A stretch of 64,000 nt of DNA, from contig CALGTD010000138.1 in the NCBI GenBank assembly GCA_937901895.1, forward strand, positions 47,679 through 111,678. Direction: 5' to 3'. The notes under the pieces are model-generated. The model was given only the letters and a program-made list of their open reading frames with translations, had not been told where the DNA came from and did no database searches. Made by a program: the position numbers and the translations under genes. Below are positions 19,457 through 49,960 of this stretch, in pieces (within the stretch, counting starts at the first letter, position 1; each line of letters opens with the position of its first letter). This DNA is from an uncultured Spartobacteria bacterium (GTDB lineage: Bacteria > Verrucomicrobiota > Verrucomicrobiia > Chthoniobacterales > JAATET01).

Positions 19457-19475
19457 GAGGTCGAACGAAAGGGAT

Positions 19476-19967
19476 TTACGAGGTTGCAGAATTAGCAGGA
19501 TTTCGAGGCAGCGAAAGGCGCAGAATTGCGACAGGTTTGGCCTGGACCATTTCCTCCTGAACGAAGCTCCAGCCCAACCGTTCGTAGAAATGCCGGTGGT
19601 CGGGGGTCCACAGATGCAGCGTGCGGATGCCCATGGCTCCGGCGCGACGCATGGTTTCGCGGACGATCTGTGTGCCGAGCCCGGCACCGCGACGGTCGGC
19701 GCGCACGATGACGGAGCCGAGCCACGGGCTGAACTCCGGATAGGGCAGCACGTCGTCCACGAGGAGCGACGCCGCGGCGACGGGTTCGTCGTTTTCGAGC
19801 AGGACGACCGTGCAGTCGGGGCGGTCGCGATTGCGGGCGCAGGATTCCGCCTCGTCCAGGGCGGTGAACCCGGGACGGAACAGATACGGCCACTCGGCGT
19901 CATACCACGCGGCCAGAGTCGGCGCGAGGTGAGGCACATCCGCGAGAAGCCGGAAATCCAGGGCCAT
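19476..19967 (-). CDS. GNAT-family N-acetyltransferase
   Basis: Acetyl-CoA binding motif RGAGLGTQIV within a 163-aa GNAT fold. Confidence 0.8.
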   Translation of the reverse strand: MALDFRLLADVPHLAPTLAAWYDAEWPYLFRPGFTALDEAESCARNRDRPDCTVVLLENDEPVAAASLLVDDVLPYPEFSPWLGSVIVRADRRGAGLGTQIVRETMRRAGAMGIRTLHLWTPDHRHFYERLGWSFVQEEMVQAKPVAILRLSLPRNPANSATS

Positions 19968-26047: not shown

Positions 26048-26854
26048 TTACTTGATCTCGACCAGGGTGCCGATGGGCACCATCGAGAAAAGCTGCCTGG
26101 CGTTTTCCTCCGGGAGGCGGACGCAGCCGTGGGAGGCTGGATAACCGGGAACATGCCCGGCGTGCAATCCAAAGTCACCGCACGAGAGCCGCAGGAAGTA
26201 GGGCATCTTCGCGTCGTAGATCGTGGACTTCCAATGCCGGTATTTGTTGGTCACGAGAAATGTTCCGGTCCGCGTGGGGGTGGCGGGTTTGCCGGAGGAG
26301 ATCGGAGTGATGAGGATGATCTCCTGTCCCTTCCAGACAATCGCCTGCTGTTTTTCGAGGTTCACGCTGATCCGATATTGCGCGGGCTCGGAATCGTCGG
26401 TGATCCCCATGAGCAGCTTCATGATTTCCAGCCGACCGTGCCGGGCCGCCTGCCACAGGGCAAAGGTTTTGCTTTTTCCAGAGAGCCGGTTCGGATTTGC
26501 CCCGGCGGCGAGAAGGAAGCGGACCGCCATTTCGTTGCCGACAGCACTCGCAAACATCAGCGGCGTGTAGCCCGGTTCCTTTCGCAGATAGTAATACAAC
26601 GGGCCATCGAGGTAGCGCTCGCGGAACGTCCTTGCCTCCGGGCAATCGGGAAAGCCCATGTCGGGATTGGGAAGGCGGTTCAGGGCAGCGCGCATGGCCT
26701 CCTTGTCGAAATCGGCGATCGCAGCAAACAGCGCGACGAGATTTTGATTTTCCACGCTGGAAGGCTTCGCGTCCGGTGCTGCGATGGAAACATTCGCCAG
26801 TGCGATGGCGAGGATCAGCGCATGGGAGGGACGAATGGAACAACGCGCGGGCAT
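26048..26854 (-). CDS. ankyrin-repeat protein fused to an L,D-transpeptidase (YkuD) catalytic domain
   Basis: Signal peptide, ankyrin-like repeats (TPLMFASAVGNEMAVRFLLAAGANPN), then the YkuD active site HGCVRL. Confidence 0.75.
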   Translation of the reverse strand: MPARCSIRPSHALILAIALANVSIAAPDAKPSSVENQNLVALFAAIADFDKEAMRAALNRLPNPDMGFPDCPEARTFRERYLDGPLYYYLRKEPGYTPLMFASAVGNEMAVRFLLAAGANPNRLSGKSKTFALWQAARHGRLEIMKLLMGITDDSEPAQYRISVNLEKQQAIVWKGQEIILITPISSGKPATPTRTGTFLVTNKYRHWKSTIYDAKMPYFLRLSCGDFGLHAGHVPGYPASHGCVRLPEENARQLFSMVPIGTLVEIK

Positions 26855-28324: not shown

Positions 28325-29653
28325 TTATTCGATCTCCAGTCGCCGCTTCACGTCGGCCGAAAGCCGGTCGATCGCGGGCATGGCGTGCTCGTAGAACGCG
28401 CGGTAGCCGGCGCACAGCCAGTTGAGGCCGGGCTCGCCATCGGCGGTCCGAAGCAGGCGGTTCTTTGGACACTCGCCCCAGCAGACACGGAGGTATTCGC
28501 ACCGGCGGCAGGCACGTGGAAGCGTCTCCGATTTCGCGTAGGCGAACTTCACCTGCTCCCGTGAGAACACGAGATCGACGAGATCATCGGAGAGGATGTT
28601 TCCGCGATAAAATTCCGGGTAAACAAAGTGATCGCAGGCGTAGACGCCGCCGTCGGCCTCGATCGCGAGGCATTTTCCGCAGAGTTCGGCGGACGTGCAG
28701 TTCTGCGCAGGCAGGCCCGCCCGCTGCGCGACGAGATCCTCGAAAATGCTGACGAAGATTCTGCCCGCGTCGTTGGTGATCCAGCGATCGAAGATTCGAA
28801 TGAGGAAGTATCCCCAGTCGTCCGGGTCCACGGTCCACGGCGTGACAATCGAGCGGGAATCGGGTGCTCCGGCGCGCGGGAGTTCCGTGGAATTCCATCT
28901 CCCCGGGGCGACGCGTTCGAAATCCCGGTGCTCGACGATCGGAATGAACTGCATCCGCAGGGAGCCGATGTCGTTTCGAAGGAAACGATACACGTCGAGC
29001 GGACGACGGGCGTTGTCGCGATGGACGCACGTCAGCGTGTTGAAAGGCACCCGATGCCGGTGCAGTCGCTTCGCGGTCTCGATGACTGCGCGCGATGTCG
29101 GCCCGCCACAGTTCGTCATGCGATGCGCATCGTGAATCTCCGGCGGACCATCCATGCTCAGCCCAACGAGAAAGCGATTCTCCGCAAGAAACTCACACCA
29201 CTCGTCGTCGAGCAGTGTGCCATTGGTCTGGATGTCGTTTTCGACGCGCTGGCCGGGACGTGCATGCCGGCGCTGAAACTCAAGAACCCGCCGGAAAAAC
29301 GGAATGCCGCGAAGCGACGGCTCGCCACCCTGCCACGAGAATACAACGGGACCGGTGTCGAAAGCCGCGAGCTGCTTTTGGATGAAGGCCTCCAGCGTTT
29401 CGTCCGACATTCGCGTCGGCCTCGGTCCGCCCGGCAAACGCGGCTTCGCGAGATAGAAACAATAGTCGCATCGGAGATTGCACGTGCTGCCGCCCGGCTT
29501 CGCCATGAGGTGGAAGCGATTTCCGCCCAGGCGCGCGGCGGCAAGTGGCGCATCGTATTTGTCGCGCATGTTCGCCCAGAATGGACAAAGCGCATGGGTG
29601 AAACCTTGCGGACGGGCAGGGAATTTTCCGCCCAGGCGCTGGAGGCGACGCAT
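28325..29653 (-). CDS. anaerobic sulfatase-maturating enzyme-like radical SAM/SPASM protein
   Basis: CNLRCDYCFY radical SAM motif near the N-terminus, GGEP, and C-terminal SPASM cysteines (CGKC...CDHF...CRRCEYLRVCWGEC). The start is possibly at the internal Met (29569). Confidence 0.8.
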   Translation of the reverse strand: MRRLQRLGGKFPARPQGFTHALCPFWANMRDKYDAPLAAARLGGNRFHLMAKPGGSTCNLRCDYCFYLAKPRLPGGPRPTRMSDETLEAFIQKQLAAFDTGPVVFSWQGGEPSLRGIPFFRRVLEFQRRHARPGQRVENDIQTNGTLLDDEWCEFLAENRFLVGLSMDGPPEIHDAHRMTNCGGPTSRAVIETAKRLHRHRVPFNTLTCVHRDNARRPLDVYRFLRNDIGSLRMQFIPIVEHRDFERVAPGRWNSTELPRAGAPDSRSIVTPWTVDPDDWGYFLIRIFDRWITNDAGRIFVSIFEDLVAQRAGLPAQNCTSAELCGKCLAIEADGGVYACDHFVYPEFYRGNILSDDLVDLVFSREQVKFAYAKSETLPRACRRCEYLRVCWGECPKNRLLRTADGEPGLNWLCAGYRAFYEHAMPAIDRLSADVKRRLEIE

Positions 29654-29701: not shown

Positions 29702-30256
29702 TCAAATCACGCGGCTGTTCATCCGTCGTGGCGACGACCCGCCTTTCGCCGTGCGGCATTCGCACTCTTCCAGATCGGCGACGTGGTGCTTCACGACGGC
29801 ACGACGCAGCTCGGAAAAGTGCCCGTTCTCGCAGCACAACACGAAGCTCTCCATGATGGTTTTGAGCTCCTCCCAGTGGCGACGCACGGAGCGGGCCTCC
29901 GCGTCGGTGATCTCGTTGTCCATGCTGGCGTGGGCAATCACGGCCAGCATATTGGCGAACTCCTGAATGATCTCATTCGTCGCGGGTAGAAGGTCGTTGC
30001 ATTGATCCCGGTGCTCGGGATCCCAGACGAAAAATCCCCCGGCGTGATGACACAGCCATTGAATGATCGGCAGATGGTCGGTGAGTTCGATCAGCAGGCG
30101 CGTCCGGTCGAGCGGGTTTCGAGCTCCGCTGCGATCATCTCCGTCGCTTTGCGCCCATTTGTAAACAATGGAAAGGGAGACGCCAAGGGCAGCGGCGATT
30201 TCCTTCGGGCTGCGCTTTTCGTATGCCGCGCGCAAGACCTCATGGGATTCCTGCAT
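29702..30256 (-). CDS. helix-turn-helix regulatory protein with a C-terminal Cys/His cluster (phage-CII-like)
   Basis: HTH segment SPKEIAAALGVSLSIVYKWAQ and the C-terminal cluster LCCENGHF...KHHVADLEECEC. Transcribed divergently from the yqiJ-like gene. Confidence 0.5.
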   Translation of the reverse strand: MQESHEVLRAAYEKRSPKEIAAALGVSLSIVYKWAQSDGDDRSGARNPLDRTRLLIELTDHLPIIQWLCHHAGGFFVWDPEHRDQCNDLLPATNEIIQEFANMLAVIAHASMDNEITDAEARSVRRHWEELKTIMESFVLCCENGHFSELRRAVVKHHVADLEECECRTAKGGSSPRRMNSRVI

Positions 30257-30379
30257 GGCGCTCAGAATGGGGCCTGTCGGGACTGCCGCGCAAGGAATCC
30301 GTGATGAGAAACAACGGATGTTTTTGTAACAGCGATTGACACAGTCGCTTCGCTACTTTCCGCGGCGAGGAGGAAAGTC

Positions 30380-30994
30380 ATGCAAGCACTGATTGACCAG
30401 GCCCTGTTCGCCCCGACGCTGCCATTTACGGTGCTGCTTGCCGCACTGGCGCTTTACTGGATCGGTGCGGCGTTCGGCTTCGTTTTCAGCGAGGACGAAA
30501 TGTTCGACGCCTCGGACACCGACGGCGCATGGGCTTCGTTTCTTTCGTTCCTGAATGTCGGCGAGGTTCCGGTGATGATCGTCATCACGGTCCTCACGCT
30601 TTCCACGTGGGTGCTCAGCATCCTTGGGAACGAGTTTCTCGCGGGCGGCTCGCTGGCATTGGGGTTCGTGCTGCTCGTTCCGGCGTTCGCGGTTAGCTGC
30701 GTGATCACCCGGTTCACGACCGCGCCGTTCAAGAAGGTGCTGCGCCTGCTCAACAACGAGGGGGAGGCTCCCATGCAGCTCATCGGCAAGGTCGCCAAAG
30801 TGACCACCGCATCCGTTACCGACCGATACGGGCAGGCGGCTGTGGAGACCGGCGGAGCGCCCGTGATTGTGCAGGTGCGTGTCGCCGCCGGCGAATCACT
30901 GGCCCGTGGCGACAGCGCGCTCATCGTCGCAGAGAACGCCGCGACCGGAACTTTTACCGTCCGAAAAGTCAGCAACCAACAACTGGAGAACTAA
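30380..30994 (+). CDS. YqiJ/NfeD-like inner-membrane protein (DUF1449) with a C-terminal OB-fold
   Basis: Three or four N-terminal transmembrane helices, then a soluble beta-rich C-terminal domain (IGKVAKVTTASVTDRYGQAAVETGGAPVIVQVRV). Ends 3 nt before the flotillin gene. RBS GAGGAGG at about 30365. Confidence 0.7.
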   Translation: MQALIDQALFAPTLPFTVLLAALALYWIGAAFGFVFSEDEMFDASDTDGAWASFLSFLNVGEVPVMIVITVLTLSTWVLSILGNEFLAGGSLALGFVLLVPAFAVSCVITRFTTAPFKKVLRLLNNEGEAPMQLIGKVAKVTTASVTDRYGQAAVETGGAPVIVQVRVAAGESLARGDSALIVAENAATGTFTVRKVSNQQLEN

Positions 30995-30997
30995 ACC

Positions 30998-33004
30998 ATG
31001 GAACTCATCACACCACTTGCACTGCTGATCGGGATCATTGCGGTCCTGATCCTGCTGGGCTTCCTCGTCATGATCGTTCGCTGCTACCGCAAGGTGGACC
31101 AGGGACAGGCGCTCGTGCGCAACGGCCTCGGCGGCACGAAGGTGTCGTTTTCCGGCATCGTCGTGCTTCCTGTCATCCACAAGGCGGAATTCATGGACAT
31201 TTCCGTCAAGCGGGTGGAGATCGATCGCGCCGGCGTGAACGGTCTGATCTGCCGGGACAACATGCGCGCCGACATCAAAGTCGCATTCTTCGTGCGGGTG
31301 AATCAGACCGCGCAGGATGTGTTGAAGGTCGCGCAGTCGATCGGATGCACGAGGGCGTCGAGCCAGGGCGCCATCGTCGATCTGTTCGATGCGAAGTTTT
31401 CCGAGGCGCTGAAAACCGTCGGGCGGCAGTTCGATTTCGTCGAGCTCTACAACTCCCGCGAGAAACTCAAGGACGACATCATCCAGCTCATCGGCACGGA
31501 TTTGAACGGATTCGTGCTCGAGGATGTTGCGATCGATTACCTCGAGCAGACGCCGCTCAATCTTCTCAATCCCGACAACATTCTCGACGCGGAGGGCATC
31601 AAGAAGATCACCCAGCTCACCGCGTCGCAGAAGGTGCTCGCGAACCAGATCGACCGCGAGCGGGAGAAGACGATCAAGAAACAGGACGTCGAGGCCCGCG
31701 AGGCCATTCTCGAGCTCGAGCGGCAGCAGGCCGAGGCGGAGGAAAAGCAGAGGCGCGAGGTCGCAGCCGTGGCGGCGCGCGAGCAGGCCGAGGCGAAGAG
31801 AGTGCAGGCGGAGAATCTGCTCAAGAGCGAAGCCGCCCGCATCCGGGCCGAGGAGGAAATCGCGATCGCCGAGGAAAACAAGAACCGGCAGATCATCGTT
31901 GCCCGCAAGAACAAGGAACGCACCGATGCCATCGAGACCGAGCGCGTCGAGCGGGACCGGCTCATCGAGGTCACTGAGCGCGAGCGCATCGTCGAACTTG
32001 CGACGATCGAGAAGAACAAGGCGATCGAGGTCGAGCAGAAGGCGATTCAGGACGTGATTCGCGAGCGCCTTGTCGTCGAGAAATCGGCGGTTGAGGAGCG
32101 TGAGCGGATCAAGGACACCGAGGCGGTCGCCGCCGCGGACCGCGAGAAAAAGGTGAAGATCACCGAGGCGGAGATGCAGGCCGAACAGGCGCTGGTGAAG
32201 GATATCAAGGCCGCCGAGGCCGCGAAACGGGCCGCGGAACTGCTGGCTGAGCAGGAGTTGTTCAGCCGCGTGAAGCAGGCGGAAGCCGAAAAGGAAGCCG
32301 CAGAGCTGCGGGCGCAGGAGATCCTCATCGCCGCTGAGGCGGAGCAGGCAGCCGCCGTCAAACAGGCCGAGGCGAAGAAATCGCTCGCCGAAGCGACGAT
32401 CGCGGAGGTTGCAGCCACCGGACTTGGCGAAGCACAGATCATCCAGGCGAAGGCCGATGCCGAAGCGAAGGGCATTCAGGAGAAAGCGGAGGCCATGAAG
32501 GCGCTCGATGGCGTGGGTCGCGAGCACGAGGAGTTCAAGCTCCGCCTCAACAAGGAGAAGGAGATCGAGCTGGCGGGAATCACGGTCCAGCGTGAAATCG
32601 CCGAGCAGCAGGCACGCGTCCTGGGCGAGGCGCTCAAGAGCGCGAAGATCGACATCGTTGGCGGCGAGGCCCAGTTCTTCGACAAGATCACGGGTGCGAT
32701 CACCAATGCGAAGGTCGTGGACCGGCTTGTGCTGGGAAGCAACACGCTTTCCGACATCAAGGACACGTTCTTCACGGGCGATCCCGAGGACTTCCGCAAA
32801 CGGCTCGCCGAGTGGTTCCAGCTCTTCGGAGTGTCGAGCGAGGACGTGAAGAACCTCACGATCGCCGCGGCGCTCGGAAAGCTGATCAGCGAAGCGGACG
32901 ATGACCGCAGCCGTGGCGTGCTCGCGACGCTGCTCCATCGTGCAAAACTCGCGGGCGTATCCGAAAAGACGGTGGGCTCTTTGGGCGCACTGGCAGTGAA
33001 TTAA
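30998..33004 (+). CDS. flotillin / SPFH-domain (band 7) protein, YqiK-like
   Basis: N-terminal transmembrane helix, an SPFH domain, and a long E/A/K-rich coiled-coil 'flotillin' region (EAEEKQRREVAAVAAREQAEAKRVQAE...). Confidence 0.9.
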   Translation: MELITPLALLIGIIAVLILLGFLVMIVRCYRKVDQGQALVRNGLGGTKVSFSGIVVLPVIHKAEFMDISVKRVEIDRAGVNGLICRDNMRADIKVAFFVRVNQTAQDVLKVAQSIGCTRASSQGAIVDLFDAKFSEALKTVGRQFDFVELYNSREKLKDDIIQLIGTDLNGFVLEDVAIDYLEQTPLNLLNPDNILDAEGIKKITQLTASQKVLANQIDREREKTIKKQDVEAREAILELERQQAEAEEKQRREVAAVAAREQAEAKRVQAENLLKSEAARIRAEEEIAIAEENKNRQIIVARKNKERTDAIETERVERDRLIEVTERERIVELATIEKNKAIEVEQKAIQDVIRERLVVEKSAVEERERIKDTEAVAAADREKKVKITEAEMQAEQALVKDIKAAEAAKRAAELLAEQELFSRVKQAEAEKEAAELRAQEILIAAEAEQAAAVKQAEAKKSLAEATIAEVAATGLGEAQIIQAKADAEAKGIQEKAEAMKALDGVGREHEEFKLRLNKEKEIELAGITVQREIAEQQARVLGEALKSAKIDIVGGEAQFFDKITGAITNAKVVDRLVLGSNTLSDIKDTFFTGDPEDFRKRLAEWFQLFGVSSEDVKNLTIAAALGKLISEADDDRSRGVLATLLHRAKLAGVSEKTVGSLGALAVN

Positions 33005-33056
33005 TCCCGGCGCGGCGGGAGCGCTGCTTCCGCCGCGTTCTTCCAAGGATCGATCG

Positions 33057-36000
33057 ATGGAAAACAAACCACCGACAATCGAAGGCGGCACCTACGAGGT
33101 TTTGCGCGCCCGGCTCGACGAGCAGGCGCGTGACCTCCGGGAGCGGTTGGAGCGGCTGAACGACGCGCGGCAGGAGGTCTTCGGGACCATCGAAACCGCG
33201 CTTGTCGCGACGGGGCGGATCTCCACCGAGAACAACTGCGTCCCTCGCGACATGGTCGCGATTCGCAAACGCCGGTCGCTGCTTGGCTACAATGTCCACA
33301 TCGGCCTGCGCTCGGAGGTCCGGCTCGAGGATGTGTTTACCGCCTACCAGCGCGAGGGGGACGAGTTTCGGCCGATCCCGCTCGATTTCCTGAGGGATCC
33401 GGACTTCGAAGCCGACTTCCAGAGTCTTTTCAAATACTACAAGAACACCGTCTTCACGAAGTTCGCGTTCATTGGGCCGCACCTCTTTTTTGTTTTTCAG
33501 GTCGGCCAGCGCGTGACGGACGTGAAGACATTCAAGTGGCTCGTCGGGGAGGACGGCGCGTTCACATACCTCGGAAACCGCAGCGACCACGAGTTTGTCT
33601 TTCCGCCACAGCACGAGTTCGAGTGGAAGCGCACGCATCGCGACCTGCATCGCGATGGGCTTCATCCACATATATCGATCGAGGACCGCGTGTTTGTCGA
33701 AACGATCGGCGGCGACCTCACGATCAAGGTTGAAGATAACACCGACACCGGCGCGGGCATCTACAGCGAGCCAGTTGAGCATGCCGATCAGACGCTCGAC
33801 GATGCGGAGATTTTCTACGCCGTCGTCGGCAATCTCGTTCTGCTGCGCATCCGTCCCTACCAGGAGAAGACCTGGCGGTATTTTGTATTCAACGAAAAGC
33901 TCCAGCACGTCCGGCGAATCGATGCGATCGAGCAGTCCTGTGTGCTGTTGCCGGACGGACACGGCATTATCTTCTCGCGCGGCTACTATTTGCAAAGCGG
34001 AGAGCTGAAACTCTTCGACGCGAACTCGACCGACATGCTTTTCGAGCGGCGGATTGCCGCGCCGAACCGCGAGGATCACCTCTTCTGCTTCTACAATCGC
34101 GAGCGCGGCGACTACATCCTGATGCCCTACAACGTGATCACGCAGCGCGTGGACACGCCCATTCATTGCCAGGGTTTTTCCATCTTCGACAGCGGCGAAC
34201 TTGCGCTCTTCAAGGGGGACTCGGAACCGCAGAAACATCACACCGTCCAGATCTGGCAGACGCCGTTCACCGGCTCGACGTTCCAGACTCCGGCGAAGAC
34301 CGATTCGTTTCTCTTCAAAGTTGGCAACGGCGACATCGTCCGCTGCATGGCTGAGTGCCACGAGATTCTCGGGCTGATTGCGCGCGACGAACCCTATGCC
34401 GACCTCTATGTGGACCTTCGCAAGAGGGCCGGCGACGTGCTCGACTCGTATTTCTGGTTGCGGGAGGAGGACGCCTTTCGGTTGGTCGAACCGCTCGCGG
34501 CGATCCGCGATGCCGCGGATCGAACGATCGAGGAGTTCGACAAGGTGCTCGAGCTGCGTCGCACGGCGGCATCGAAACTGGAAGAAGTCGCAGGAAAGGC
34601 GCGCGCACTGACGGAGGGGATTGTTCCGGGGGAGTTGCAGGATATCGACGCCTACGTGCATGCGCTGGCCGGTCTGCGCACCGTTCGCGGTGAGCTGATT
34701 GCGCTCCGGGACGTCCGATACATCGATCTGGAACGGGTCGATACCGAGGAACAACTTGTCGCCGACTGCAGTGAGGAAGTGTCCAGGCTGTGCGTGGAGT
34801 TTCTTCTCGGTGATGCGGCGCTTTCCCCGTATCGCGAGCGCGTGAAGGCGCTGGAATGCCGGATCGATGAAATCTCCCGCGTCGTTGACGGGCGCGCGCT
34901 CGAAGAGGAGATGACCGTAGCCGGCGCGGACCTGAGCATGCTCATTGAGATCGTCGGCAATCTGCAGATCGACGATGCGACGGCGACGACGCGGATTATT
35001 GACGACATCTCCGCAATCTACGCGGCGCTGAACCAGAACCTCGCCCGCCTGCGCCAACGACTTGCCGGGCTGCGTCAGAGCGAGGGAGCGGCGCAGTTTG
35101 GAGCGCAGCTGAAGCTTGTCACCCAGGCCGTAACAAACCTGCTCGAGCGCTGCGACACACCGGAGAAGTGCGATGAAGCGCTCGGGCGCATGATGGTGCA
35201 GCTCGAGGAGCTGGAGACGCGTTTTGCGGAGGCGGCGGAGTTTCTCGAGCCACTGGCGGAGAAGCGCACGGAGGTCATCTCTGCGTTCGAGGCGAGAAAA
35301 CTCGCGCTTTTGGAGGCGCGCAACCGGAAGGCGACCGCGCTGGCCGGGGTGGCCGACCGCATGCTGAAGGGAATTCAAACCCGGGTGGCGTCCATCGATG
35401 ACGTCGCGGCCATCCACGGATTTTTCGCGTCCGATCTCATGGTCGACAAGCTGCGCGATGTCATTCAGCAGTTGCTCGATCTCGGCGATCCCGTGAAGGC
35501 CGATGATGCGCAGTCGCGATTGAAGACCCTGCGCGAGGAGGCCGTGCGTCAGCTCAAGGATCGAAAGGAGCTGTTCGTTGATGGTTCGGACGTCGTTGCG
35601 TTTGGTCCGCACCGGTTCAATGTGAACACGCAGCCGACCGATCTGACCGTGCTGCATCGGGACGACGGCCTGTTTCTGCATCTTTCCGGCACGCGCTTTT
35701 TCGAGCGGATCGAGGATCCCGAACTTGATGAGCTTCGTCCCGTTTGGGACCTCGAGGTTGTTTCCGAATCGCACGACGTGTATCGCGCGGAGTGGCTCGC
35801 CTGCAAGCTGCTCAGAAGCCTTGAAGATGGCGGTCGGCTGGCGGAAGCCGCCCGGTGGAGTTCCGCGCAATGGCTCGATGAGGTGCGGAATTTCATGTCC
35901 CCGCGATACGCCGAAGGTTATGTGCGGGGAATTCATGATGCGGACGCGGTCCGAATTCTGGAAGCGCTGGCGCCGATGCACCTGGCGGCCGGAACGGTGC

Positions 36001-38090
36001 GGCATCCTCCGTCCGCGCGGGTGCTCGGAATCATGGCCTGGGATCATTTCGACAATGCGGAGGAACGGGCGCTGCTGGAGGGACAACTGGCGAGCCATGG
36101 CGCGATGCGAGGTGTCTTCGAAACCGAGGCCCGCCCGGCGCCGTATCTCGCAAGGCTCGAGGGCGTCTGCCGGCGGGCAATCGAAAGCGGAGCGCCGTTC
36201 GACGAATCACTGGTTTCCCCCGCGGCGGAATATTTGTTCGACGCGTTGAGTTCGGGAGAGGGATTCGCGTTCAGCCAGGACGCTTTCGAGGTGTTCCGCG
36301 CGTTCGAAGATGATGTGCGGGAGCGGGGAGCCTTCGACCGGTTTGTGGAGCTTCGAAAGGCGGTGGAGACCAATCCGTGGCGCCACTTCGAGATGCTTCG
36401 CGATTGGATGAGCGGGTTTCTGCGCCGCAGCGACAGGGACGGGACGTTTTGTGACGAGGCAGTCTTCCTGCTGAAGCGCGGCGCGCATCACCAGCATCGC
36501 GTGGTCGATGTTGAGCTGCGTGTGGATCTCACCGGCATGCTCGGCCAGCATCCTCGCCTCCGGAACGGCGCCTATGTGCTGGATTACCTGGATTTCACGG
36601 ACCGTCTCGAGCGTCACGAGCGTGTCACGGCACCCGCCTTCGAGCGGTTTCAGGCGATCAAACGCCGTCTCTCCGAAGTGGGAGCCAGTCGCCTGCGGGT
36701 CGAGGAGCTTCGTCCGAAGGTGCTGACATCGTTTGTCCGGAACCGCCTTGTGGATGAGGTCTTTTTGCCGCTCGTCGGCGCAAACCTCGCGAAGCAGATG
36801 GGCACCGCGGGCGCGAATACGCGCACGGATCGCATGGGTCTGCTGCTGTTGATTTCACCTCCCGGCTACGGCAAGACGACGCTTATGGAATATGTCGCGA
36901 GCCGGCTCGGGCTCGTGTTCATGAAGATCAATGGTCCGTCGCTCGGCGCCGGCGTCACCTCGCTGGATCCCTCGCATGCTCCGAATGCTGCGGCGCGCGA
37001 GGAGATCGAGAAACTGAATCTCGCATTCGAGATGGGCGACAATGTGATGATCTATGTGGACGACATCCAGCATTGTCATCCCGAGTTCCTGCAGAAGTTC
37101 ATTTCGCTCTGCGACGGCCAGCGGCGGATCGAGGGTGTCTATCGCGGACAGGCGCGCACCTACGACCTGCGCGGGCGGAAGGTCGCCGTGGTCATGGCGG
37201 GAAATCCCTACACGGAAAGCGGCGAGAAGTTCCGGATTCCCGACATGCTCGCGAACCGGGCCGATACCTACAATCTCGGCGACATCGCTGTGGGCGCGCA
37301 CTTCGAAGCGTTCCGCCTGAGCTACCTTGAGAATGCGCTCACGTCGAACGCGGTGCTGAACCCTCTCGCCGCGCGCGGGCGCAAGGACATCCTTGGCGTC
37401 ATTCGAATTGCGGAGACCGGTGGCCGCGATGGCGTCGAGCTTGAAGGCAATTACACCGCTCGGGAACTCGAAGACATGGTTTCCGTCGTGAAGAAGCTCG
37501 GCCGCATCCGCGACGTGATCCTGAAGGTGAATGCGGAATACATCCGCTCCGCCGCGCAGGCCGATGCCTACCGCACCGAGCCGCCGTTCCGCCTGCAGGG
37601 ATCGTATCGCAACATGAACCGCATGGCCGAGAAGGTCGTGCCGGTGATGAACGACGAAGAACTCGAAGCGCTCGTGATGGACCACTACCGCAACGAGGCC
37701 CAGACGCTCACGACGGGTGCCGAGGCGAACCTGCTCAAGCTGCGGGAACTTCTCGAAAAACTCACTCCGGAGGAGGCGGCGCGATGGGAGGAAATTCGGA
37801 AGACCTTTCGTCGCAACCTGCTGGTGGCGGGGACGGAAGGGGATGACCCGATTGCGCAGGTTGTCCGGCAGCTCGTGGCGTTTAATGTCGGGCTGGAAGG
37901 GATCAAGGACGTTATCGGGAGCATGGCCGCGAAGCCGGAACGCCCGCCCGCGGGATCCGATCCGGGGATCGATCTCACGAAGGTCGCGATCTCGCGCGAG
38001 ACCTTGCAGAAGATCTGGGAGCTCATCGAGCAGGACAAGATTCGGGCGAACAAGGGCGACACGTTGCAGGTGAAGATTCCGGAGGAGTAG
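33057..38090 (+). CDS. 1677-aa multidomain protein with a single C-terminal MoxR/AAA_5-type ATPase module; N-terminal ~1250 aa of unknown function
   Basis: Uninterrupted 5-kb ORF. Walker A LLLISPPGYGKTT (~36858-36884), Walker B VMIYVDDIQH (~37050-37080) and VVMAGNP (sensor-1-like). A beta-rich N-terminal ~450 aa and a coiled-coil-rich middle region have no recognisable family. Confidence 0.8.
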   Translation: MENKPPTIEGGTYEVLRARLDEQARDLRERLERLNDARQEVFGTIETALVATGRISTENNCVPRDMVAIRKRRSLLGYNVHIGLRSEVRLEDVFTAYQREGDEFRPIPLDFLRDPDFEADFQSLFKYYKNTVFTKFAFIGPHLFFVFQVGQRVTDVKTFKWLVGEDGAFTYLGNRSDHEFVFPPQHEFEWKRTHRDLHRDGLHPHISIEDRVFVETIGGDLTIKVEDNTDTGAGIYSEPVEHADQTLDDAEIFYAVVGNLVLLRIRPYQEKTWRYFVFNEKLQHVRRIDAIEQSCVLLPDGHGIIFSRGYYLQSGELKLFDANSTDMLFERRIAAPNREDHLFCFYNRERGDYILMPYNVITQRVDTPIHCQGFSIFDSGELALFKGDSEPQKHHTVQIWQTPFTGSTFQTPAKTDSFLFKVGNGDIVRCMAECHEILGLIARDEPYADLYVDLRKRAGDVLDSYFWLREEDAFRLVEPLAAIRDAADRTIEEFDKVLELRRTAASKLEEVAGKARALTEGIVPGELQDIDAYVHALAGLRTVRGELIALRDVRYIDLERVDTEEQLVADCSEEVSRLCVEFLLGDAALSPYRERVKALECRIDEISRVVDGRALEEEMTVAGADLSMLIEIVGNLQIDDATATTRIIDDISAIYAALNQNLARLRQRLAGLRQSEGAAQFGAQLKLVTQAVTNLLERCDTPEKCDEALGRMMVQLEELETRFAEAAEFLEPLAEKRTEVISAFEARKLALLEARNRKATALAGVADRMLKGIQTRVASIDDVAAIHGFFASDLMVDKLRDVIQQLLDLGDPVKADDAQSRLKTLREEAVRQLKDRKELFVDGSDVVAFGPHRFNVNTQPTDLTVLHRDDGLFLHLSGTRFFERIEDPELDELRPVWDLEVVSESHDVYRAEWLACKLLRSLEDGGRLAEAARWSSAQWLDEVRNFMSPRYAEGYVRGIHDADAVRILEALAPMHLAAGTVRHPPSARVLGIMAWDHFDNAEERALLEGQLASHGAMRGVFETEARPAPYLARLEGVCRRAIESGAPFDESLVSPAAEYLFDALSSGEGFAFSQDAFEVFRAFEDDVRERGAFDRFVELRKAVETNPWRHFEMLRDWMSGFLRRSDRDGTFCDEAVFLLKRGAHHQHRVVDVELRVDLTGMLGQHPRLRNGAYVLDYLDFTDRLERHERVTAPAFERFQAIKRRLSEVGASRLRVEELRPKVLTSFVRNRLVDEVFLPLVGANLAKQMGTAGANTRTDRMGLLLLISPPGYGKTTLMEYVASRLGLVFMKINGPSLGAGVTSLDPSHAPNAAAREEIEKLNLAFEMGDNVMIYVDDIQHCHPEFLQKFISLCDGQRRIEGVYRGQARTYDLRGRKVAVVMAGNPYTESGEKFRIPDMLANRADTYNLGDIAVGAHFEAFRLSYLENALTSNAVLNPLAARGRKDILGVIRIAETGGRDGVELEGNYTARELEDMVSVVKKLGRIRDVILKVNAEYIRSAAQADAYRTEPPFRLQGSYRNMNRMAEKVVPVMNDEELEALVMDHYRNEAQTLTTGAEANLLKLRELLEKLTPEEAARWEEIRKTFRRNLLVAGTEGDDPIAQVVRQLVAFNVGLEGIKDVIGSMAAKPERPPAGSDPGIDLTKVAISRETLQKIWELIEQDKIRANKGDTLQVKIPEE

Positions 38091-38168
38091 ACACCGACAG
38101 GCCCGCGGGACCTTCCGGGTGGGCTTTGACGGCTTGATGGAGGAATGCGGCCCTGCCATGGTGCGGCC

Positions 38169-38633
38169 ATGAAGCGCCTGTTCCTCTCCGTTGCTTTGGT
38201 CGTCGTCGCCATCGTCGCAACCGGCTGTCTTGCATCTCCGGTTTCGAGTTCGGGAGGCTTCGGCGCGGTGACGGTCACCAACACGAATGTCGACGCGATC
38301 AATGCGGCGGCACAGGCGGTCTTCGCTGAATACGGCTATCAACCCGGACCGATGAACTATCCGGACTCCTTTTCCTTCGACAAGAAGGCGGGCGCCTTTG
38401 GACAGCTCATGTATGCGAGCTACAACGACCCGACTTCCTACCGCGTCACGCTCTTCACGACGCAGCTTCCCGGCACGAACGATTTCCGCCTGAGCACACG
38501 CGTCGCGCGCGTTTCGGACGCCGGCGAAGCGGGATTCGAGGATACGACCCGCATGTCGGGACTGTGGTCCGCGGAATTTGGTCCGATCCTGAAGAAGATT
38601 GCCGCCCAGGCACAGGGCGCTGGTGGCATTTGA
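38169..38633 (+). CDS. hypothetical lipoprotein
   Basis: Signal peptide with lipobox (VVAIVATGCLAS). Function unknown. Confidence 0.5.
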   Translation: MKRLFLSVALVVVAIVATGCLASPVSSSGGFGAVTVTNTNVDAINAAAQAVFAEYGYQPGPMNYPDSFSFDKKAGAFGQLMYASYNDPTSYRVTLFTTQLPGTNDFRLSTRVARVSDAGEAGFEDTTRMSGLWSAEFGPILKKIAAQAQGAGGI

Positions 38634-38836
38634 TCCCGCAGGGCGCCCCGGCGGGGCGCGACTCCCGGACGTCGGAGCTACAGGCCTGGAGCTAAGGTCG
38701 TGTCCGGCCATTTCTGCGCGGCATTCGGCGGGCACATTCCGGAGCCATGATCGTTGCGTCATCGCACCGGTGAAGGACGCGCAATGAATGGCGGAGGGCG
38801 TTGTCAAAGGGTGCGGACTTGATTAAACGCAACCGC

Positions 38837-40330
38837 ATGCGCCGCCCTTTTTTCCTGCTGCACCTTTCCGCTCTGCTCCTCGCCGGGGCGGCACCGTCTT
38901 CTGCGCAAACCTTTGTGCCTGCTCCGATGCCGGCTTTGTTGAGGAAGGCGGGCCTTCCTCCCACGGTGCGCTTCGGTTACGTCACTGTCCCCGCGAACCG
39001 GGCGATGAATAATGGACAGAAGATCCAGATCGCGGTGGCGATCCTTCCCGCGAGGGAATCGCCGAAGAAGCCGGACCCGATCTTCTTTCTGCAGGGCGGA
39101 CCGGGAGGGGCCGCCACCTTGGTGGCTGGGGATCCCGTGTATTCTCTGCTCTCCAGGGATCGCGATGTCGTCTTCATTGACCAGCGGGGGTGCGGGTTCT
39201 CGCGACCGTTTCTGGGTGCGGCTTCCAATGATGTGACCGTTCCATTCCGTCCGATCGCTCGTGCCCGGGCCCGCTTCCGCGAGCGTGGAATTCCTCTTGC
39301 GAGCTTCAATACGCCGGAGAATGCAGCGGACGTCGAGGCGGTCCGGAAGGCGCTCGGCTATGGTCAAATCAACCTGTTGGGCAGCTCCTACGGGACGGTG
39401 CTCGCACAGCAGGTGATGAGTGATTTTCCACACAGACTCCGGTCGGTCGTGCTGAGCGGGGTGGTGCCGCTGCGTGGCTGGGACCTTGTGCCCGGCAATC
39501 AGCTTGTGCAGATGGATGGCCTGCGCGGCCTGTTTCGCGACGTGCGACGCACGCGGCGCGATCGGCGTTCGTTTCCGGCCCTCTCCTCGCGGTATAATGA
39601 GGTGATTGCGCGGCTTCTGGAGCGGCCGGTCATCCTCCGTCATCGCAGACAGAAGATCCGGCTCGATGCGTTTTCGTTTCAAAGTGCGCTGATCGTGCTC
39701 CTGCAGACACCGCAAACGGTCCGCTATGTTCCGTTGCTCATCGAGGCCGCGTGGGAAGGACGCTACGAGCAGGTGGGGCCGTATCTTTATCCGCCGATGC
39801 GGCCGGGCGACCGCGGTCTCGCATTCGGGATGTTTCTTTCCGTCGTGTCTCACGATTTCCGGGCGCCGGGAACCCATCGCCATGCGCTGGCACAAGTCGA
39901 TCGACTGCCCAATGGTCCCTTCAAGACGATGACCCGTTACACCGTCGACCGCCTCACCAAGGCGCTCGACCGCTGGCCGGTGGCCTACGATCCGGGCGCG
40001 ATCCGGCCGCCGTTTGGCAGTGCGGTGCCAACTTTGCTCGTGCAGGGAGACATGGATGCGCAGACACCGCCGAAGGGCGGAACGGACGCCGCGCGGCTGC
40101 TTGGTTTGAAGAATGCGTTTGTGATGTCGTTCCCCCGCAGTGGCCACGCGACCGGTCTTTCCGAAGGGCCGGCGTGCGACGCCATTCGTCAGTTTTTTGA
40201 CACGCCGAATCGGCGACCGGTCGTCAATCTGGCCCCGCTTCGGAAACGGCACTTCTACCTCACGAAATTCCCGCAGCGCTCCCGCACGAAGGCGATGCGC
40301 CCGGTGGTTCCCGTGGCCTCGTTGCCTTGA
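38837..40330 (+). CDS. secreted alpha/beta hydrolase (S33/TAP-like peptidase family), copy 1
   Basis: Signal peptide, GGPGG, and nucleophile elbow GSSYGT. About 65% identical to the downstream paralog. Confidence 0.75.
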   Translation: MRRPFFLLHLSALLLAGAAPSSAQTFVPAPMPALLRKAGLPPTVRFGYVTVPANRAMNNGQKIQIAVAILPARESPKKPDPIFFLQGGPGGAATLVAGDPVYSLLSRDRDVVFIDQRGCGFSRPFLGAASNDVTVPFRPIARARARFRERGIPLASFNTPENAADVEAVRKALGYGQINLLGSSYGTVLAQQVMSDFPHRLRSVVLSGVVPLRGWDLVPGNQLVQMDGLRGLFRDVRRTRRDRRSFPALSSRYNEVIARLLERPVILRHRRQKIRLDAFSFQSALIVLLQTPQTVRYVPLLIEAAWEGRYEQVGPYLYPPMRPGDRGLAFGMFLSVVSHDFRAPGTHRHALAQVDRLPNGPFKTMTRYTVDRLTKALDRWPVAYDPGAIRPPFGSAVPTLLVQGDMDAQTPPKGGTDAARLLGLKNAFVMSFPRSGHATGLSEGPACDAIRQFFDTPNRRPVVNLAPLRKRHFYLTKFPQRSRTKAMRPVVPVASLP

Positions 40331-40448
40331 GATTGCACGGAAAGGACGTCCACCCAACTCCCGGTCGATCTTCACCCCAGCGAGGGCGACGACTGGCGGA
40401 GAGTGGTGGCGGCGTTGTCAAAGTGGGCGGACTGGATTAAAGGCACGC

Positions 40449-41948
40449 ATGCTCCGACACCTTCTTTCGCTGCGTGTCTTCGCGGCATTTCTCGTCGGGG
40501 CGGGGCCGGCTCTTGCGCAGACCTTCGTGCCTGCTCCGCTTCCGGCGTTGTTGAGAAGGGTGGGTCTTCCAGATACGGTGCTCTTCGGCTACGTGGCGGT
40601 TCCCGAGAACAGGGGATCGGACAATGGACGGATGATTCAGGTTGCGGTCACCATTCTGCCTGCGACTCAATCGTCGAAGCGACCGGATCCCATTTTCTTT
40701 CTCGAAGGCGGTCCGGGAGGGACGGCGAGCTACCTGCCGCTCTCGCCGACGTTTTCGATCCTGGCGCAGGATCGGGATATCGTGTTCGTGGATCAGCGCG
40801 GATGCGGATTTTCACGGCCGTTTCTTGGCGCGAATTCCAACGACGTCACCGTGCCCTATTCCCCGATCAAGAAGGCGCTCGCGCGGTTTCGCTCCGCCGG
40901 CATTCCGCTGGAGTGCTTCAACACGGCGGAGAATGCCGCCGATATCGAGGCCGTCCGTGTGGCGCTGGGTTACGGCGCGATCAATCTCCTCGGGCACTCG
41001 TATGGCTCGGTGCTCGCGCAGCAGATGATGAGCGACTTTCCGGCGAACCTGCGTTCGGTGGTGCTGAGCGGGGTGGTGCCGTTGCGCGGATGGGATTTCG
41101 TGCCGGGGAACCAGCTCGTGCAGCGCGATGCGTTGAGGGCACTGTTTCGCGATGTGCGTCGCACTCGAAGGGCGCGCGCGACGTTTCCGAATCTCGCGCG
41201 ACATTACGAAGAGGTGGTGGCGAGGCTGCTCGAAAAGCCGGTGATGGTGCCGAGATTCGGACGCCTCGTGCGACTGGATGCCTTTTCCTTCCAGATGGCC
41301 CTGCTTGGGCTCATGCAGGCGCCGAACACCATTTGCGTGGTGCCGCTTTTCATTCAGGCCACGTGGGAGGGCCGCTACGAGGAGATCGGTCGCTTTATTC
41401 CGGACGACCTCTCTCCGGTGAAAAACCGGAGTTTTGCCTTCGGCATGTATCTTTCGGTGATGTCGCGCGATTTTTTCCCGCCCGGGTCTGCGGCAAAAGC
41501 GCGCGCCGCCGCTGATGCGCTGCCGGACAGTGCGTTCAAGGAGATGACACGCGTCACCGTTTCCCGACTCGCCCGGGCGATCAATCGCTGGCCGGTGCGC
41601 TACGATCCGACCGGACTGAAGCCGCCGTTCGGAAGCGCCATCCCGACGCTTCTGCTCCAGGGGGACATGGATGCGCAGACGCCGTCTCGTGGCGGCACGG
41701 ATGCCGCGCGTCTGCTGGGCCTGCGGAACGCTTTTGTCATCAGTGTGCCGCGTAGCGGTCACAGCACCGGTGCCACCCAGGGACCCGCCTTCAACGCGGT
41801 GCGTCGGTTTTTTGCCGAACCGCACCGCAGGCCCGTGGTGAGCTTTGCCTCGTTGCGGCGGCCGAATTTTTATCGCACCCGATTTCCAGTCTCATCCCGG
41901 ATGCGGACGCCCGCGGTGGCGATTCCGCAGCTCCCGACGGGGTTGTAG
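40449..41948 (+). CDS. secreted alpha/beta hydrolase (S33/TAP-like peptidase family), copy 2
   Basis: Signal peptide, GGPGG, and nucleophile elbow GHSYGS. Collinear with copy 1 over its whole length. Confidence 0.8.
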   Translation: MLRHLLSLRVFAAFLVGAGPALAQTFVPAPLPALLRRVGLPDTVLFGYVAVPENRGSDNGRMIQVAVTILPATQSSKRPDPIFFLEGGPGGTASYLPLSPTFSILAQDRDIVFVDQRGCGFSRPFLGANSNDVTVPYSPIKKALARFRSAGIPLECFNTAENAADIEAVRVALGYGAINLLGHSYGSVLAQQMMSDFPANLRSVVLSGVVPLRGWDFVPGNQLVQRDALRALFRDVRRTRRARATFPNLARHYEEVVARLLEKPVMVPRFGRLVRLDAFSFQMALLGLMQAPNTICVVPLFIQATWEGRYEEIGRFIPDDLSPVKNRSFAFGMYLSVMSRDFFPPGSAAKARAAADALPDSAFKEMTRVTVSRLARAINRWPVRYDPTGLKPPFGSAIPTLLLQGDMDAQTPSRGGTDAARLLGLRNAFVISVPRSGHSTGATQGPAFNAVRRFFAEPHRRPVVSFASLRRPNFYRTRFPVSSRMRTPAVAIPQLPTGL

Positions 41949-42045: not shown

Positions 42046-42324
42046 ATGGCCACCACGGCGAAAGTGCTGCTTTGGGTTTTGGGGATGTTTCTTATTCCGC
42101 CGTTCGTCGGATTTCTCACGGGAGCGGCAAGTAATTGGGCAAACGCCGGTGCATTCGTCGCCTATGGCTTCGTGATGATTGGAATGGCGGTGGGGGCGGC
42201 TGTGAACGTGGCGCGAAGTCCGGCAGCGCGGATTGGCCTGTTTTTTGTTTTTGCGGTCGGAATGCTCTTCCTGCAGTGCGCCGTCTTTTTTGTCGGTTGC
42301 ACGATTCTCGTGTCGGTCGCGTGA
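42046..42324 (+). CDS. small integral membrane protein
   Basis: 92 aa with three predicted transmembrane helices. Its stop overlaps the GTG start of the radical SAM gene (GTGA). Confidence 0.4.
   Translation: MATTAKVLLWVLGMFLIPPFVGFLTGAASNWANAGAFVAYGFVMIGMAVGAAVNVARSPAARIGLFFVFAVGMLFLQCAVFFVGCTILVSVA

Positions 42325-44381: not shown

Positions 44382-44398
<17 letters not shown>
43694..44398 (+). CDS. prolipoprotein diacylglyceryl transferase (Lgt)-like membrane protein
   Basis: Seven predicted transmembrane helices and the Lgt-like signature region [20 protein letters not shown] start overlaps the radical SAM stop (GTGA). Confidence 0.6.
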
Positions 44399-48083
<3,685 letters not shown>

Positions 48084-49872: not shown

Positions 49873-49960
49873 GAAGCGCAGAGTTTGCGAGTCAGGAGGC
49901 CCGGTGCGGAAGCACGAACTGGCGAAAAGATCGGGTTGCGGATAGATTCCGACATCCCTC

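Follow-up and report, generated by a model that had tools for sequence, protein, structure and literature searches.

Described Systems Related to the Locus

The mechanistic role of bacterial flotillins is still debated. Two known assemblies, HflK/C with FtsH and Vps4 with ESCRT-III/PspA (PspA being itself an ESCRT-III relative), share with the locus presented here a common logic, namely a membrane scaffold polymer served by an AAA+ ATPase; the likeness is one of analogy only, since homology is limited to the generic SPFH and AAA+ folds, and the giant ATPase of our locus, unlike the FtsH and Vps4 systems, has no protease domain, MIT domain or membrane anchor. As far as the first two genes of the locus are concerned, the yqiJ-yqiK pair of Escherichia coli and the yuaF-floT pair of Bacillus subtilis show the same order and a tight spacing, and the products of genes 1 and 2 are homologous to YqiJ and YqiK; in E. 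coli, however, no big ATPase gene lies downstream, and yqiK is followed by the small RNA genes sibD and sibE. The closest described system is the CesT/Tir-PspA-YqiJ/YuaF-(Band-7+flotillin)-(beta-propeller+coiled-coil+AAA+) operon of Ravi et al. (mSystems 2024, PMC11237479; section 19 and Table S3), of which there are a full version containing PspA and CesT/Tir and abbreviated versions lacking PspA; that work is a comparative-genomics study set in the context of the phage-shock-protein (PSP) envelope-stress response, with no experiments on the operon and with the Pfam families left unnamed.

The window, that is, the whole 64-kb stretch of DNA analysed here, carries a four-gene chromosomal cassette coding for a CII-like regulator, an NfeD-like membrane protein, a flotillin and a giant soluble ATPase. 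With the published operon the window shares the order of the YqiJ-like, flotillin and AAA+ genes and all three domain architectures, so that the original prediction that such a combination is not a described system has to be abandoned (PMC11237479). The loci from Bacteroidota reproduce the published layout exactly, with the divergent HTH-protease gene, CesT/Tir and PspA all in place; an example of the published operon is Dokdonia donghaensis ANH61663.1. In the window, on the other hand, PspA and CesT/Tir are missing (tblastn, and an HMM search of all six frames, over the entire 64 kb), and a divergent CII-like regulator takes the place of the HTH_3-S24 one; given the absence of PspA and CesT/Tir, the locus represents an abbreviated form of the operon. 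This identity is shown by the analysis; taken jointly with the scaffold-remodelling mechanism that we infer for the ATPase, it constitutes our main reading, to which a probability of roughly 0.6 may be assigned.

Organization of the Locus and Its Regulator

The core of the cassette consists of three open reading frames on the + strand, separated by 3 nt (genes 1 and 2) and 52 nt (genes 2 and 3); the tight cluster first described from the sequence is thus confirmed in its coordinates, strand and both gaps. Upstream, on the - strand, positions 29702–30256 encode a 184-residue HTH regulator of the phage CII/CP76-like type (Pfam HTH_23, E=1.3e-5). Homologues 41–50% identical to it occupy the same divergent position in loci L030, L033 and L036, the last of which matches Pfam Phage_CP76 (E=9e-8); Phage_CP76 genes stand in the equivalent position in L082 and L083, one homologue lies on the same strand just upstream in L014, and another about 6 kb upstream in L038. 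The suggestion that the regulator is a part of the module therefore holds for the lineage of the window, which is one of two lineages endowed with a dedicated regulator, the other being Bacteroidota, where an HTH_3 domain is joined to an S24 peptidase.

The divergent intergenic control region (30257–30379) contains the motif TTTGTAAC at 30323–30330, and GTTACAAA/TTTGTAAC is common to five of six equivalent intergenic regions; an AGGAGG ribosome-binding site precedes gene 1 at 30368–30373, and a promoter scan of the control region found no sigma-70 consensus promoter.

The Membrane Protein and the Flotillin

Gene 1 (30380–30994, + strand) codes for a protein of 204 residues whose relationship to YqiJ, already proposed from the sequence, is supported both by BLASTP against E. 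coli YqiJ (22% identity over 167 residues, E=3e-4) and by alignment of the family profile to the same protein with hhalign (probability 96.3%, E=1.8e-9, 157 columns). The match to Pfam YqiJ_N (E=5.6e-4) falls under the curated cut-off, Pfam NfeD gives no match, and a weak profile match (E=0.035) is obtained with the soluble OB domain of B. subtilis YuaF (PDB 2k14). A hydropathy scan reveals overlapping hydrophobic stretches at residues 7–37, 51–84 and 81–115, which are read as about three membrane segments; the protein is of the YqiJ/YuaF type, with a multi-pass N-terminal half followed by a soluble C-terminal domain. In 50 of 80 loci the flotillin gene is preceded by a homologue of gene 1, the gap between the two being mostly -8 to +50 nt.

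Gene 2 (30998–33004, + strand; 668 residues) is a true YqiK-type flotillin, as had been claimed: BLASTP aligns it with E. coli YqiK over 506 residues at 31% identity (E=4e-50), and hhalign yields a probability of 100% (E=8.7e-41). The window protein itself finds no sequence match in Pfam, NCBIfam or PDB, and Pfam Band_7 (PF01145) fails to recognize it even at E<=10; the same model matches only 2 of 17 members of the flotillin family, a weak Band_7 match being on record for the orthologue of L082. The Band_7 miss is read as a limit of the sensitivity of the model, and not as evidence against homology.

An N-terminal membrane anchor (a single hydrophobic segment, residues 1–33, by hydropathy) is followed by the SPFH domain and by an EA-rich coiled coil; the C-terminal region, about 160 residues long, is conserved. 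The hhalign alignment with YqiK stops near residue 450 (column 433 of 699 in the profile), and nothing in YqiK aligns with the last third of the window flotillin, to which the conserved C-terminal part belongs. Among the 120 matches listed for the C-terminal region, no precomputed Pfam family is recorded save in three fragments; these fragments carry unrelated Pfam families.

The Giant ATPase

Gene 3 (33057–38090, + strand) encodes a soluble protein of 1677 residues, which, unlike the products of genes 1 and 2, has no hydrophobic segment by hydropathy. The AAA+ module had been regarded as its only recognizable part; this view needs correction, given that the N-terminal half matches Pfam PF12458 (DUF3686) at residues 26–466 (E=6e-186, 618.6 bits against a cut-off of 25) and PF25472 (DUF7902) at residues 588–669 (E=1e-23, 83.5 bits against a cut-off of 26). 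In the AF2 model (mean pLDDT 81), residues 48–401 (33198–34259), the core of DUF3686, are all-beta, and Foldseek relates this N-terminus to beta-propeller proteins such as IFT-A, Elp1, paraoxonase, prolyl oligopeptidase, Ycf48 and the clathrin heavy chain; residues 418–838 (34308–35570), including DUF7902, form long helices of alpha-helical/coiled-coil type, and residues 846–1141 (35592–36479) comprise a small beta domain and then a helical one.

The AAA+ module, at residues about 1255–1560 (36819–37736), matches AAA/AAA_5 at residues 1263–1387 (AAA, 28.3 bits against a cut-off of 21.2). Walker A is GYGKTT (1270–1275), Walker B is DD (1335–1336), sensor-1 is N1383, and R1401 and R1518 are conserved arginines; the core AAA+ motifs are all invariant. 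The DD of Walker B, in place of DE, could denote a slow, switch-like ATPase and not a motor. The loop between the second strand and the second helix of the fold, which we take to be GAGVTSLDP, has no aromatic residue, so that a threading unfoldase mechanism is not evident.

The fold of the module is closest to MoxR-type structures. MoxR-type ATPases are usually paired with a VWA partner; no VWA domain is found by Pfam in genes 1–3 or in their immediate neighbours in the window, nor does VWA occur among the recurrent families flanking related loci. Compared to the MoxR family (CbbQ/CbbO, NorQ/NorD, RavA/ViaA) and to the AAA_5 domains of dynein and midasin, gene 3 thus differs in having no VWA/MIDAS partner, in about 1250 extra N-terminal residues and in the Walker B DD, with a sequence identity of only 14–16%; the AF2 secondary structure shows no clear helix-2 beta-hairpin insert.

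Conservation and Genomic Context

The linkage of the big gene to a SPFH gene across genomes, on which the original prediction had been staked beforehand, is maintained: in 68 of 80 homologous loci a flotillin gene, 36–61% identical to gene 2 in its product, lies directly upstream and on the same strand. Nine of the remaining twelve have less than 2 kb of upstream flank; among the 71 loci with enough flank, the flotillin gene is missing in only three (L018, L035 and L065). The fetched loci come from Desulfobacterota, Planctomycetota, Verrucomicrobiota, Kiritimatiellota, Omnitrophota, Bacteroidota and Clostridia, and the same order is present in Gammaproteobacteria (pQBR103) and Actinomycetota (a Streptomyces plasmid), that is, in at least nine phyla, a distribution which bears out the view of the three genes as a conserved functional unit. 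More than 3900 homologues of gene 3, exceeding 50% identity across phyla, go under the NCBI name "DNA repair ATPase"; the family retains 50–60% identity across phyla and a fixed architecture, and, when loci are compared in pairs, identity in gene 2 is correlated with identity in gene 3 (r=0.73, a value confounded by shared phylogeny). Carriers include Pseudomonas fluorescens SBW25 (plasmid pQBR103), Proteus mirabilis and several cultivable Bacteroidota.

Just upstream of the module, PspA (Pfam, E=4e-41) is encoded in 18 loci and CesT_Tir_1 (E=4e-54) in 13, all of them labelled Bacteroidota. In pQBR103 the SPFH and ATPase genes are preceded by a hypothetical gene, and directly upstream of these three come PspA, a rhomboid, DUF2491, DUF350, DUF1190 and a glutathionylspermidine-synthase-like gene. 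The recurrent linkage to PspA indicates an envelope-stress or membrane-remodelling module, and among the functions initially listed for the locus, stress response and remodelling are the ones that fit best.

A Possible Mechanism and Its Alternatives

In the mechanism that we favour, the flotillin and its NfeD partner would build, on the cytoplasmic side of the inner membrane, an SPFH cage or microdomain to which the ATPase would be recruited through its propeller/coiled-coil half, the conserved C-terminal region specific to this flotillin family being a plausible docking site; ATP binding and hydrolysis by gene 3 would then remodel the scaffold, or the proteins held by it, through assembly, disassembly or turnover. 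The module may in this way contribute to an inducible membrane-damage response, acting alongside PspA where the latter is encoded next door; the searchable literature reports no physical interaction, stress induction or phenotype for it. In a narrower version, put forward tentatively and with the odds against it, the giant MoxR-like ATPase would serve YqiK-type flotillin cages as a dedicated factor that drives their assembly and disassembly with ATP, docking on the C-terminal region of the flotillin.

Synteny would support equally well a different division of labour, in which damaged or unfolded membrane proteins are confined by the flotillin/NfeD cage, to be extracted, disaggregated or chaperoned by the AAA+ protein. 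Such client processing would parallel HflK/C with FtsH, or FloA-NfeD of Staphylococcus aureus; according to two reports, SPFH cages enclose the AAA+ protease FtsH and FloA-NfeD stabilizes unfolded proteins (PMC13220708, PMC11222466). The MoxR-type relatives CbbQ and NorQ, as they are described, remodel client protein complexes. The ATPase, however, is devoid of a protease domain (Pfam) and of a membrane anchor, no aromatic pore loop is evident in it, and the conserved core encodes no candidate client; this alternative is considered unlikely, at perhaps one chance in five.

The scaffold-remodelling reading implies a functional link between gene 3 and the genes preceding it, which a second alternative would loosen: genes 1–2 and gene 3 might be separate transcription units, divided by a full terminator. 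The spacer between genes 2 and 3 is indeed filled by a strong hairpin (33009–33039, + strand), with a 14-bp GC-rich stem, a folding energy of -28.5 kcal/mol (z=-2.27) and a U-poor tail; a similar hairpin is present in L082 (-28.3, z=-3.94), in 14 of 31 loci the spacer forms a more stable fold than shuffled versions of it do (z<-2), some of the hairpins, as in L014 and L060, carry terminator-typical T-runs, and some genomes have unrelated genes between gene 2 and gene 3. Owing to this stable and recurring structure, the co-transcription of genes 2 and 3 is unproven, and the claim of a single operon with no terminator is left unsupported. Against a full separation, the window hairpin has no U-tract and is not recognized as a canonical intrinsic terminator by the terminator scan, no promoter-like site is found by scanning between the hairpin and the start codon of gene 3, and the constancy of gene order and orientation across nine phyla argues for functional coupling whatever the structure of the transcript; separate units with a loose functional link are improbable. 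The hairpin may be an attenuator or an mRNA-stability element, and it would probably reduce the expression of the ATPase relative to the scaffold subunits.

A third alternative, an anti-phage defence or conflict system working as a membrane-anchored sensor/effector machine, was also among the functions first listed. It could be evoked by the large ATPase with its repeat domains, by the adjoining CII-like, phage-type regulator, by a PIN toxin-antitoxin pair that separates gene 2 from gene 3 in one relative, and by sporadic single defence genes among the neighbours. In PADLOC-DB 2.0, however, gene 3 finds only trivial P-loop matches (E>=0.0036; the best, IetA, over 29 P-loop residues), and genes 1 and 2 find nothing; among 148 flanking proteins from 37 loci, the recurrent PADLOC matches are HTH regulators only, the remaining flanks being varied housekeeping families. 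The neighbours of the module in the window, L082 and L083 are genes such as metH, purSQL, those for pyruvate kinase and others of this sort, along with an RND efflux pump. No match exists in a phage collection of 50,697 records, matches occur in only 13 of 72,556 plasmid records, mostly megaplasmids or chromosome-sized, and the conservation of the family is unlike that of fast-evolving defence genes; a defence function is very unlikely. Still less credible is the function implied by the database name, in which gene 3 would work on DNA as a repair ATPase and its position beside the flotillin gene would reflect a DNA transaction tethered to the membrane. In its favour stand the Pfam and NCBI family names ("ATPase involved in DNA repair", "DNA repair ATPase") and weak P-loop matches to RuvB. 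The score against the RuvB family models is 21.7 bits for a cut-off of 282, with only 50 residues around Walker A aligned, and the name "DNA repair ATPase" is without visible support and probably misleading.

Significance

The discovery value of the locus is limited by the fact that the gene association is already in print (PMC11237479). The module nevertheless gives a YqiK-type flotillin a near-obligate, ATP-consuming genomic partner; this partner being very large, 50–60% identical across distant phyla and repeatedly joined by PspA, the module is a strong candidate for a machine of membrane repair or scaffold remodelling, and it is well suited to experimental study. If the proposed role of the ATPase is true, bacterial flotillin (and PspA) scaffolds would have an energy-dependent turnover cycle, with a logic comparable to that of Vps4 with ESCRT-III or of clathrin uncoating, and bacterial flotillins would gain a defined biochemical partner together with a testable mechanism.

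Organization of the Locus and Its Regulator

The three genes lie on the forward strand as the tight, same-strand cluster that the original prediction had described. Gene 1, encoding a 204-aa NfeD-like membrane protein of the YqiJ/YuaF type, occupies 30380-30994 and is preceded by an AGGAGG ribosome-binding site (30368-30373); gene 2, for a 668-aa YqiK-type flotillin, follows after 3 nt at 30998-33004, and gene 3, for a giant AAA+ ATPase of 1677 aa, after a further 52 nt at 33057-38090. The GC content of the region (~60-63%) does not depart from that of the rest of the window. Divergently from gene 1, a helix-turn-helix gene at 29702-30256 encodes a CII-like regulator of 184 aa; a divergent Phage_CP76/CII-like gene is also found in the closest long relatives of the locus, L082 (73% identity) and L083 (66%), and likewise in L030, L033, and L036, which upholds its proposed membership of a self-contained module, while the homologues in L014 and L038 are positioned elsewhere. 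Between regulator and gene 1 the motif TTTGTAAC is found at 30323-30330; the GTTACAAA/TTTGTAAC motif is common to five of the six divergent regulator-gene 1 intergenic regions (equivalents in L030, L033, L036, and L082), with a TATAAT-like hexamer some 14-15 nt downstream of it in L030, L033, and L036, and could represent either a promoter element or an operator of the CII-like regulator. A sigma-70 promoter scan gave no match upstream of gene 1 or in the gene 2-gene 3 spacer.

Next downstream, in the orientation of genes 1-3, is an ORF of 162 aa (38145-38633) with a lipoprotein-type signal peptide (…VATGC) and no family match; it is not kept beside the module elsewhere and was discarded as a member; the same applies to two radical-SAM genes flanking the region (28325-29653 and 42135-43697, one with a SPASM domain) and to two tandem alpha/beta-hydrolase (TAP-like) ORFs, none of which accompanies the module elsewhere. 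The hydrolase ORFs, at 38801-40330 and 40140-41948, overlap by ~190 nt as listed, and therefore the start codon of the second is probably further downstream.

Conservation of the Module

A scan of a genome collection yielded 80 loci with gene 3 homologues (44-54% identity), labelled Desulfobacterota, Planctomycetota, Verrucomicrobiota, Kiritimatiellota, Omnitrophota, Bacteroidota, and Clostridia. The linkage of the big gene to SPFH genes, on which the original prediction hinged, is borne out by this survey: a gene 2 homologue (36-61% identity) is found directly upstream of gene 3 and on the same strand in 68 of the 80 loci, and a gene 1 homologue is also detectable in 50. Nine of the 12 loci lacking gene 2 have less than 2 kb of upstream sequence, leaving three true absences of an adjoining flotillin gene: in L018, in L065, and in L035, whose big gene carries a frameshift. 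At ~40% identity, the same gene order recurs on two plasmids, pQBR103 of Pseudomonas fluorescens and one from Streptomyces. Synteny is near-obligate, and the linkage of the module is strongly supported. The divergence of gene 2 correlates with that of gene 3 (r=0.73), a figure inseparable from shared phylogeny and for this reason set aside as evidence of interaction.

Small insertions occur at the junction between flotillin and ATPase genes. In L083 (9306-9995; 66% identity) a 79-aa gene and a PIN-domain gene, resembling a toxin-antitoxin pair, are inserted with the order left intact, and in several Bacteroidota loci one to three unrelated small genes are found there.

The module is recurrently linked to PspA and to dedicated regulators. 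PspA (Pfam, E=4e-41) is encoded just upstream of gene 1 in 18 loci, all labelled Bacteroidota, 13 of which also carry CesT_Tir_1 (E=4e-54); neither PspA nor CesT is present in the window. An HTH_3 gene adjoins the module in 10 of 37 flank-scanned loci, with an S24 peptidase domain as well in five of the ten, and is divergent in L074. On pQBR103 (locus L084, 85452-104392), genes for PspA, a rhomboid protein, DUF2491, DUF350, DUF1190, and a glutathionylspermidine-synthase-like protein lie immediately upstream of the module; rhomboid protease apart, this cluster resembles E. coli yjfIJKLMC, and on the other side of the module comes a silencer gene of the MvaT/MvaU type.

The operon is not new to the literature, contrary to the view that it was not a described system. 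According to Ravi et al. (mSystems 2024, PMC11237479; bioRxiv 2020), an operon joins CesT/Tir-PspA with three further genes, including a '3TM' YqiJ/YuaF protein, and abbreviated, PspA-less operons are more widely distributed; the order listed there for Dokdonia (Table S3: CesT_Tir, YqiJ-YuaF, Band-7+coiled-coil+flotillin, beta-propeller+coiled-coil+AAA-ATPase) is reproduced by the Flavobacteriaceae loci of the present set. A literature search found no experimental paper on the gene 3 ATPase, and nothing relevant on YqiK with an AAA+ protein. The locus is, then, an abbreviated, CII-regulated member of a module that is computationally described and experimentally untouched.

Membrane Components

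Gene 1 matches Pfam YqiJ_N weakly and under the cut-off (E=5.6e-4), and is 22% identical to E. coli YqiJ over 167 aligned residues (E=3e-4); a profile of 15 family sequences aligns with YqiJ at an hhalign probability of 96.3% (E=1.8e-9), and more weakly with the OB domain of YuaF (PDB 2k14, E=0.035). Hydrophobic stretches within residues 7-115 are read as about three putative membrane segments.

Searches of Pfam, NCBIfam, and PDB sequences returned no match for gene 2, Band_7 was recognised in only two of 17 family members, and the sole match of a PDB profile search was the coiled coil of QmcA; homology had therefore to be established by comparing the protein directly with YqiK of E. coli (31% identity over 506 aa, E=4e-50; hhalign probability 100%, E=8.7e-41), from which gene 2 is judged to be a true YqiK-type flotillin. 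The protein has a single N-terminal anchor and a conserved C-terminal region outside every Pfam family; with its last 169 residues as query, only fragments of the same family were recovered.

The Giant ATPase

The domain architecture of gene 3 extends beyond the AAA+ part once thought to be its only recognisable portion: residues 26-466 correspond to DUF3686 (PF12458, E=6e-186) and 588-669 to DUF7902 (E=1e-23), both in the N-terminal half, while AAA/AAA_5 covers 1263-1387. A hydropathy scan detected no hydrophobic segment. Two AF2 models, built on 36-sequence alignments, consist for residues 1-1180 (mean pLDDT 81) of a helix (12-42), an all-beta domain (48-401), long helices (418-838), a small beta domain (846-884), and a helical domain (910-1141), and for residues 1150-1677 (mean pLDDT 79) of an AAA+ fold, a lid, and C-terminal helices. 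Sequence-profile searches of the PDB gave matches only at the level of the Walker A motif, so that the family is without a solved relative. Foldseek matches of the 1180-residue N-terminal model to propellers were at fold level only, with low TM-scores, and a likeness to propeller-plus-solenoid coat proteins (IFT-A, clathrin, COPI) was too weak to build on.

The propeller domain is represented by 748 cluster representatives among 1.84 billion, full-length members being uniformly ~1600-1900 aa; to judge from these sequences, the family is compact, of fixed architecture, and widely distributed. Ankyrin or HEAT repeats, or a TPR-like extension at the C-terminus, are added in some members (P0079, P0101, P0097; L018, 9890-15487), which suggests that the protein tolerates extra protein-binding modules at its ends; L018, with its C-terminal extension, is also among the few loci without an adjoining flotillin gene. 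One eukaryote-labelled sequence (P0090, EukProt) covers 97% of the query at 54% identity; contamination or horizontal transfer could account for it.

Invariant in the family are Walker A (GYGKTT), Walker B, sensor-1 N1383, R1401, and R1518. Walker B reads DDIQH (D1335-D1336, window 37059-37064), with DD and not DE, as against the usual hhhhDE; it resembles the DnaA-type motif and may indicate slow, switch-like hydrolysis. With this DD Walker B and no aromatic pore loop evident, the sequence suggests a switch-like or lever-like remodeller and not a threading unfoldase.

Expression of the ATPase

The original prediction of a single operon without an obvious terminator holds in so far as a terminator scan of the spacer between genes 2 and 3 turned up nothing canonical; it has to be amended for a stable 14-bp GC-rich hairpin with a U-poor tail in these 52 nt (33009-33039, dG -28.5 kcal/mol, z=-2.27). 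Co-transcription of genes 1-3 is plausible. A strong GC-rich stem-loop just past the flotillin stop codon is shared by the window with many unrelated genomes, a similar one being found in L082 (9962-9988, z=-3.94); of the 31 loci whose spacer measures 25-200 nt, 14 have one that folds better than its shuffles (z<-2). Stem-loops include those of L004, L014, L043, L054, L060, L063, L064, and L066; T-runs follow some and are absent from others, the copies with T-runs looking terminator-like. We read the hairpin as a recurrent element of attenuation or stabilisation, which would set the ATPase below the level of the scaffold subunits; it may be a conserved means of lowering the ATPase-to-scaffold expression ratio.

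Possible Function and Alternatives

The flotillin and its NfeD partner would build an SPFH scaffold on the cytoplasmic face of the membrane, on which the soluble ATPase would dock via its propeller/coiled-coil half, possibly at the conserved C-terminal region of the flotillin, and would remodel the scaffold or its clients within an inducible membrane-stress response. The main live rival shares these parts and has the ATPase act on the clients and not on the scaffold.

A defence or conflict role, proposed from the sequence and poorly supported, finds no signal of defence or mobile elements at the module: PADLOC returned only trivial P-loop matches for all components, the big gene is in no phage record searched, and the recurrent Pfam/PADLOC families in the flanks of 37 loci (148 proteins) are regulators and PspA only, with defence genes occurring singly. 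The flanks outside the cassette vary by genome and are housekeeping in character (metH, purSQL, pyruvate kinase, an RND efflux pump, GH92, a Na/H exchanger). The window (17810-19939, 26048-26854, 44382-48083, 48145-50142) and the metagenome contig L082 have in common genes for a DHH-CBS-DRTGG-DHHA2 protein, an Ank-YkuD protein, MetH, and a Na/H exchanger with TrkA_N. Since the closest named homologues belong to Chthoniobacterales/Verrucomicrobiota, the window probably derives from the chromosome of a verrucomicrobial species. A function in DNA repair, echoed in the NCBI family name 'DNA repair ATPase', is likewise poorly supported. Literature searches on DUF3686 (PF12458), and on a DNA repair ATPase together with flotillin, returned nothing.

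A tractable experimental host is at hand in P. fluorescens SBW25 with the megaplasmid pQBR103; other carriers of the module are Proteus mirabilis and strains of Flavobacterium, Pontibacter, and Hymenobacter. If the ATPase is indeed a remodeller of flotillin cages, the module would matter considerably more.
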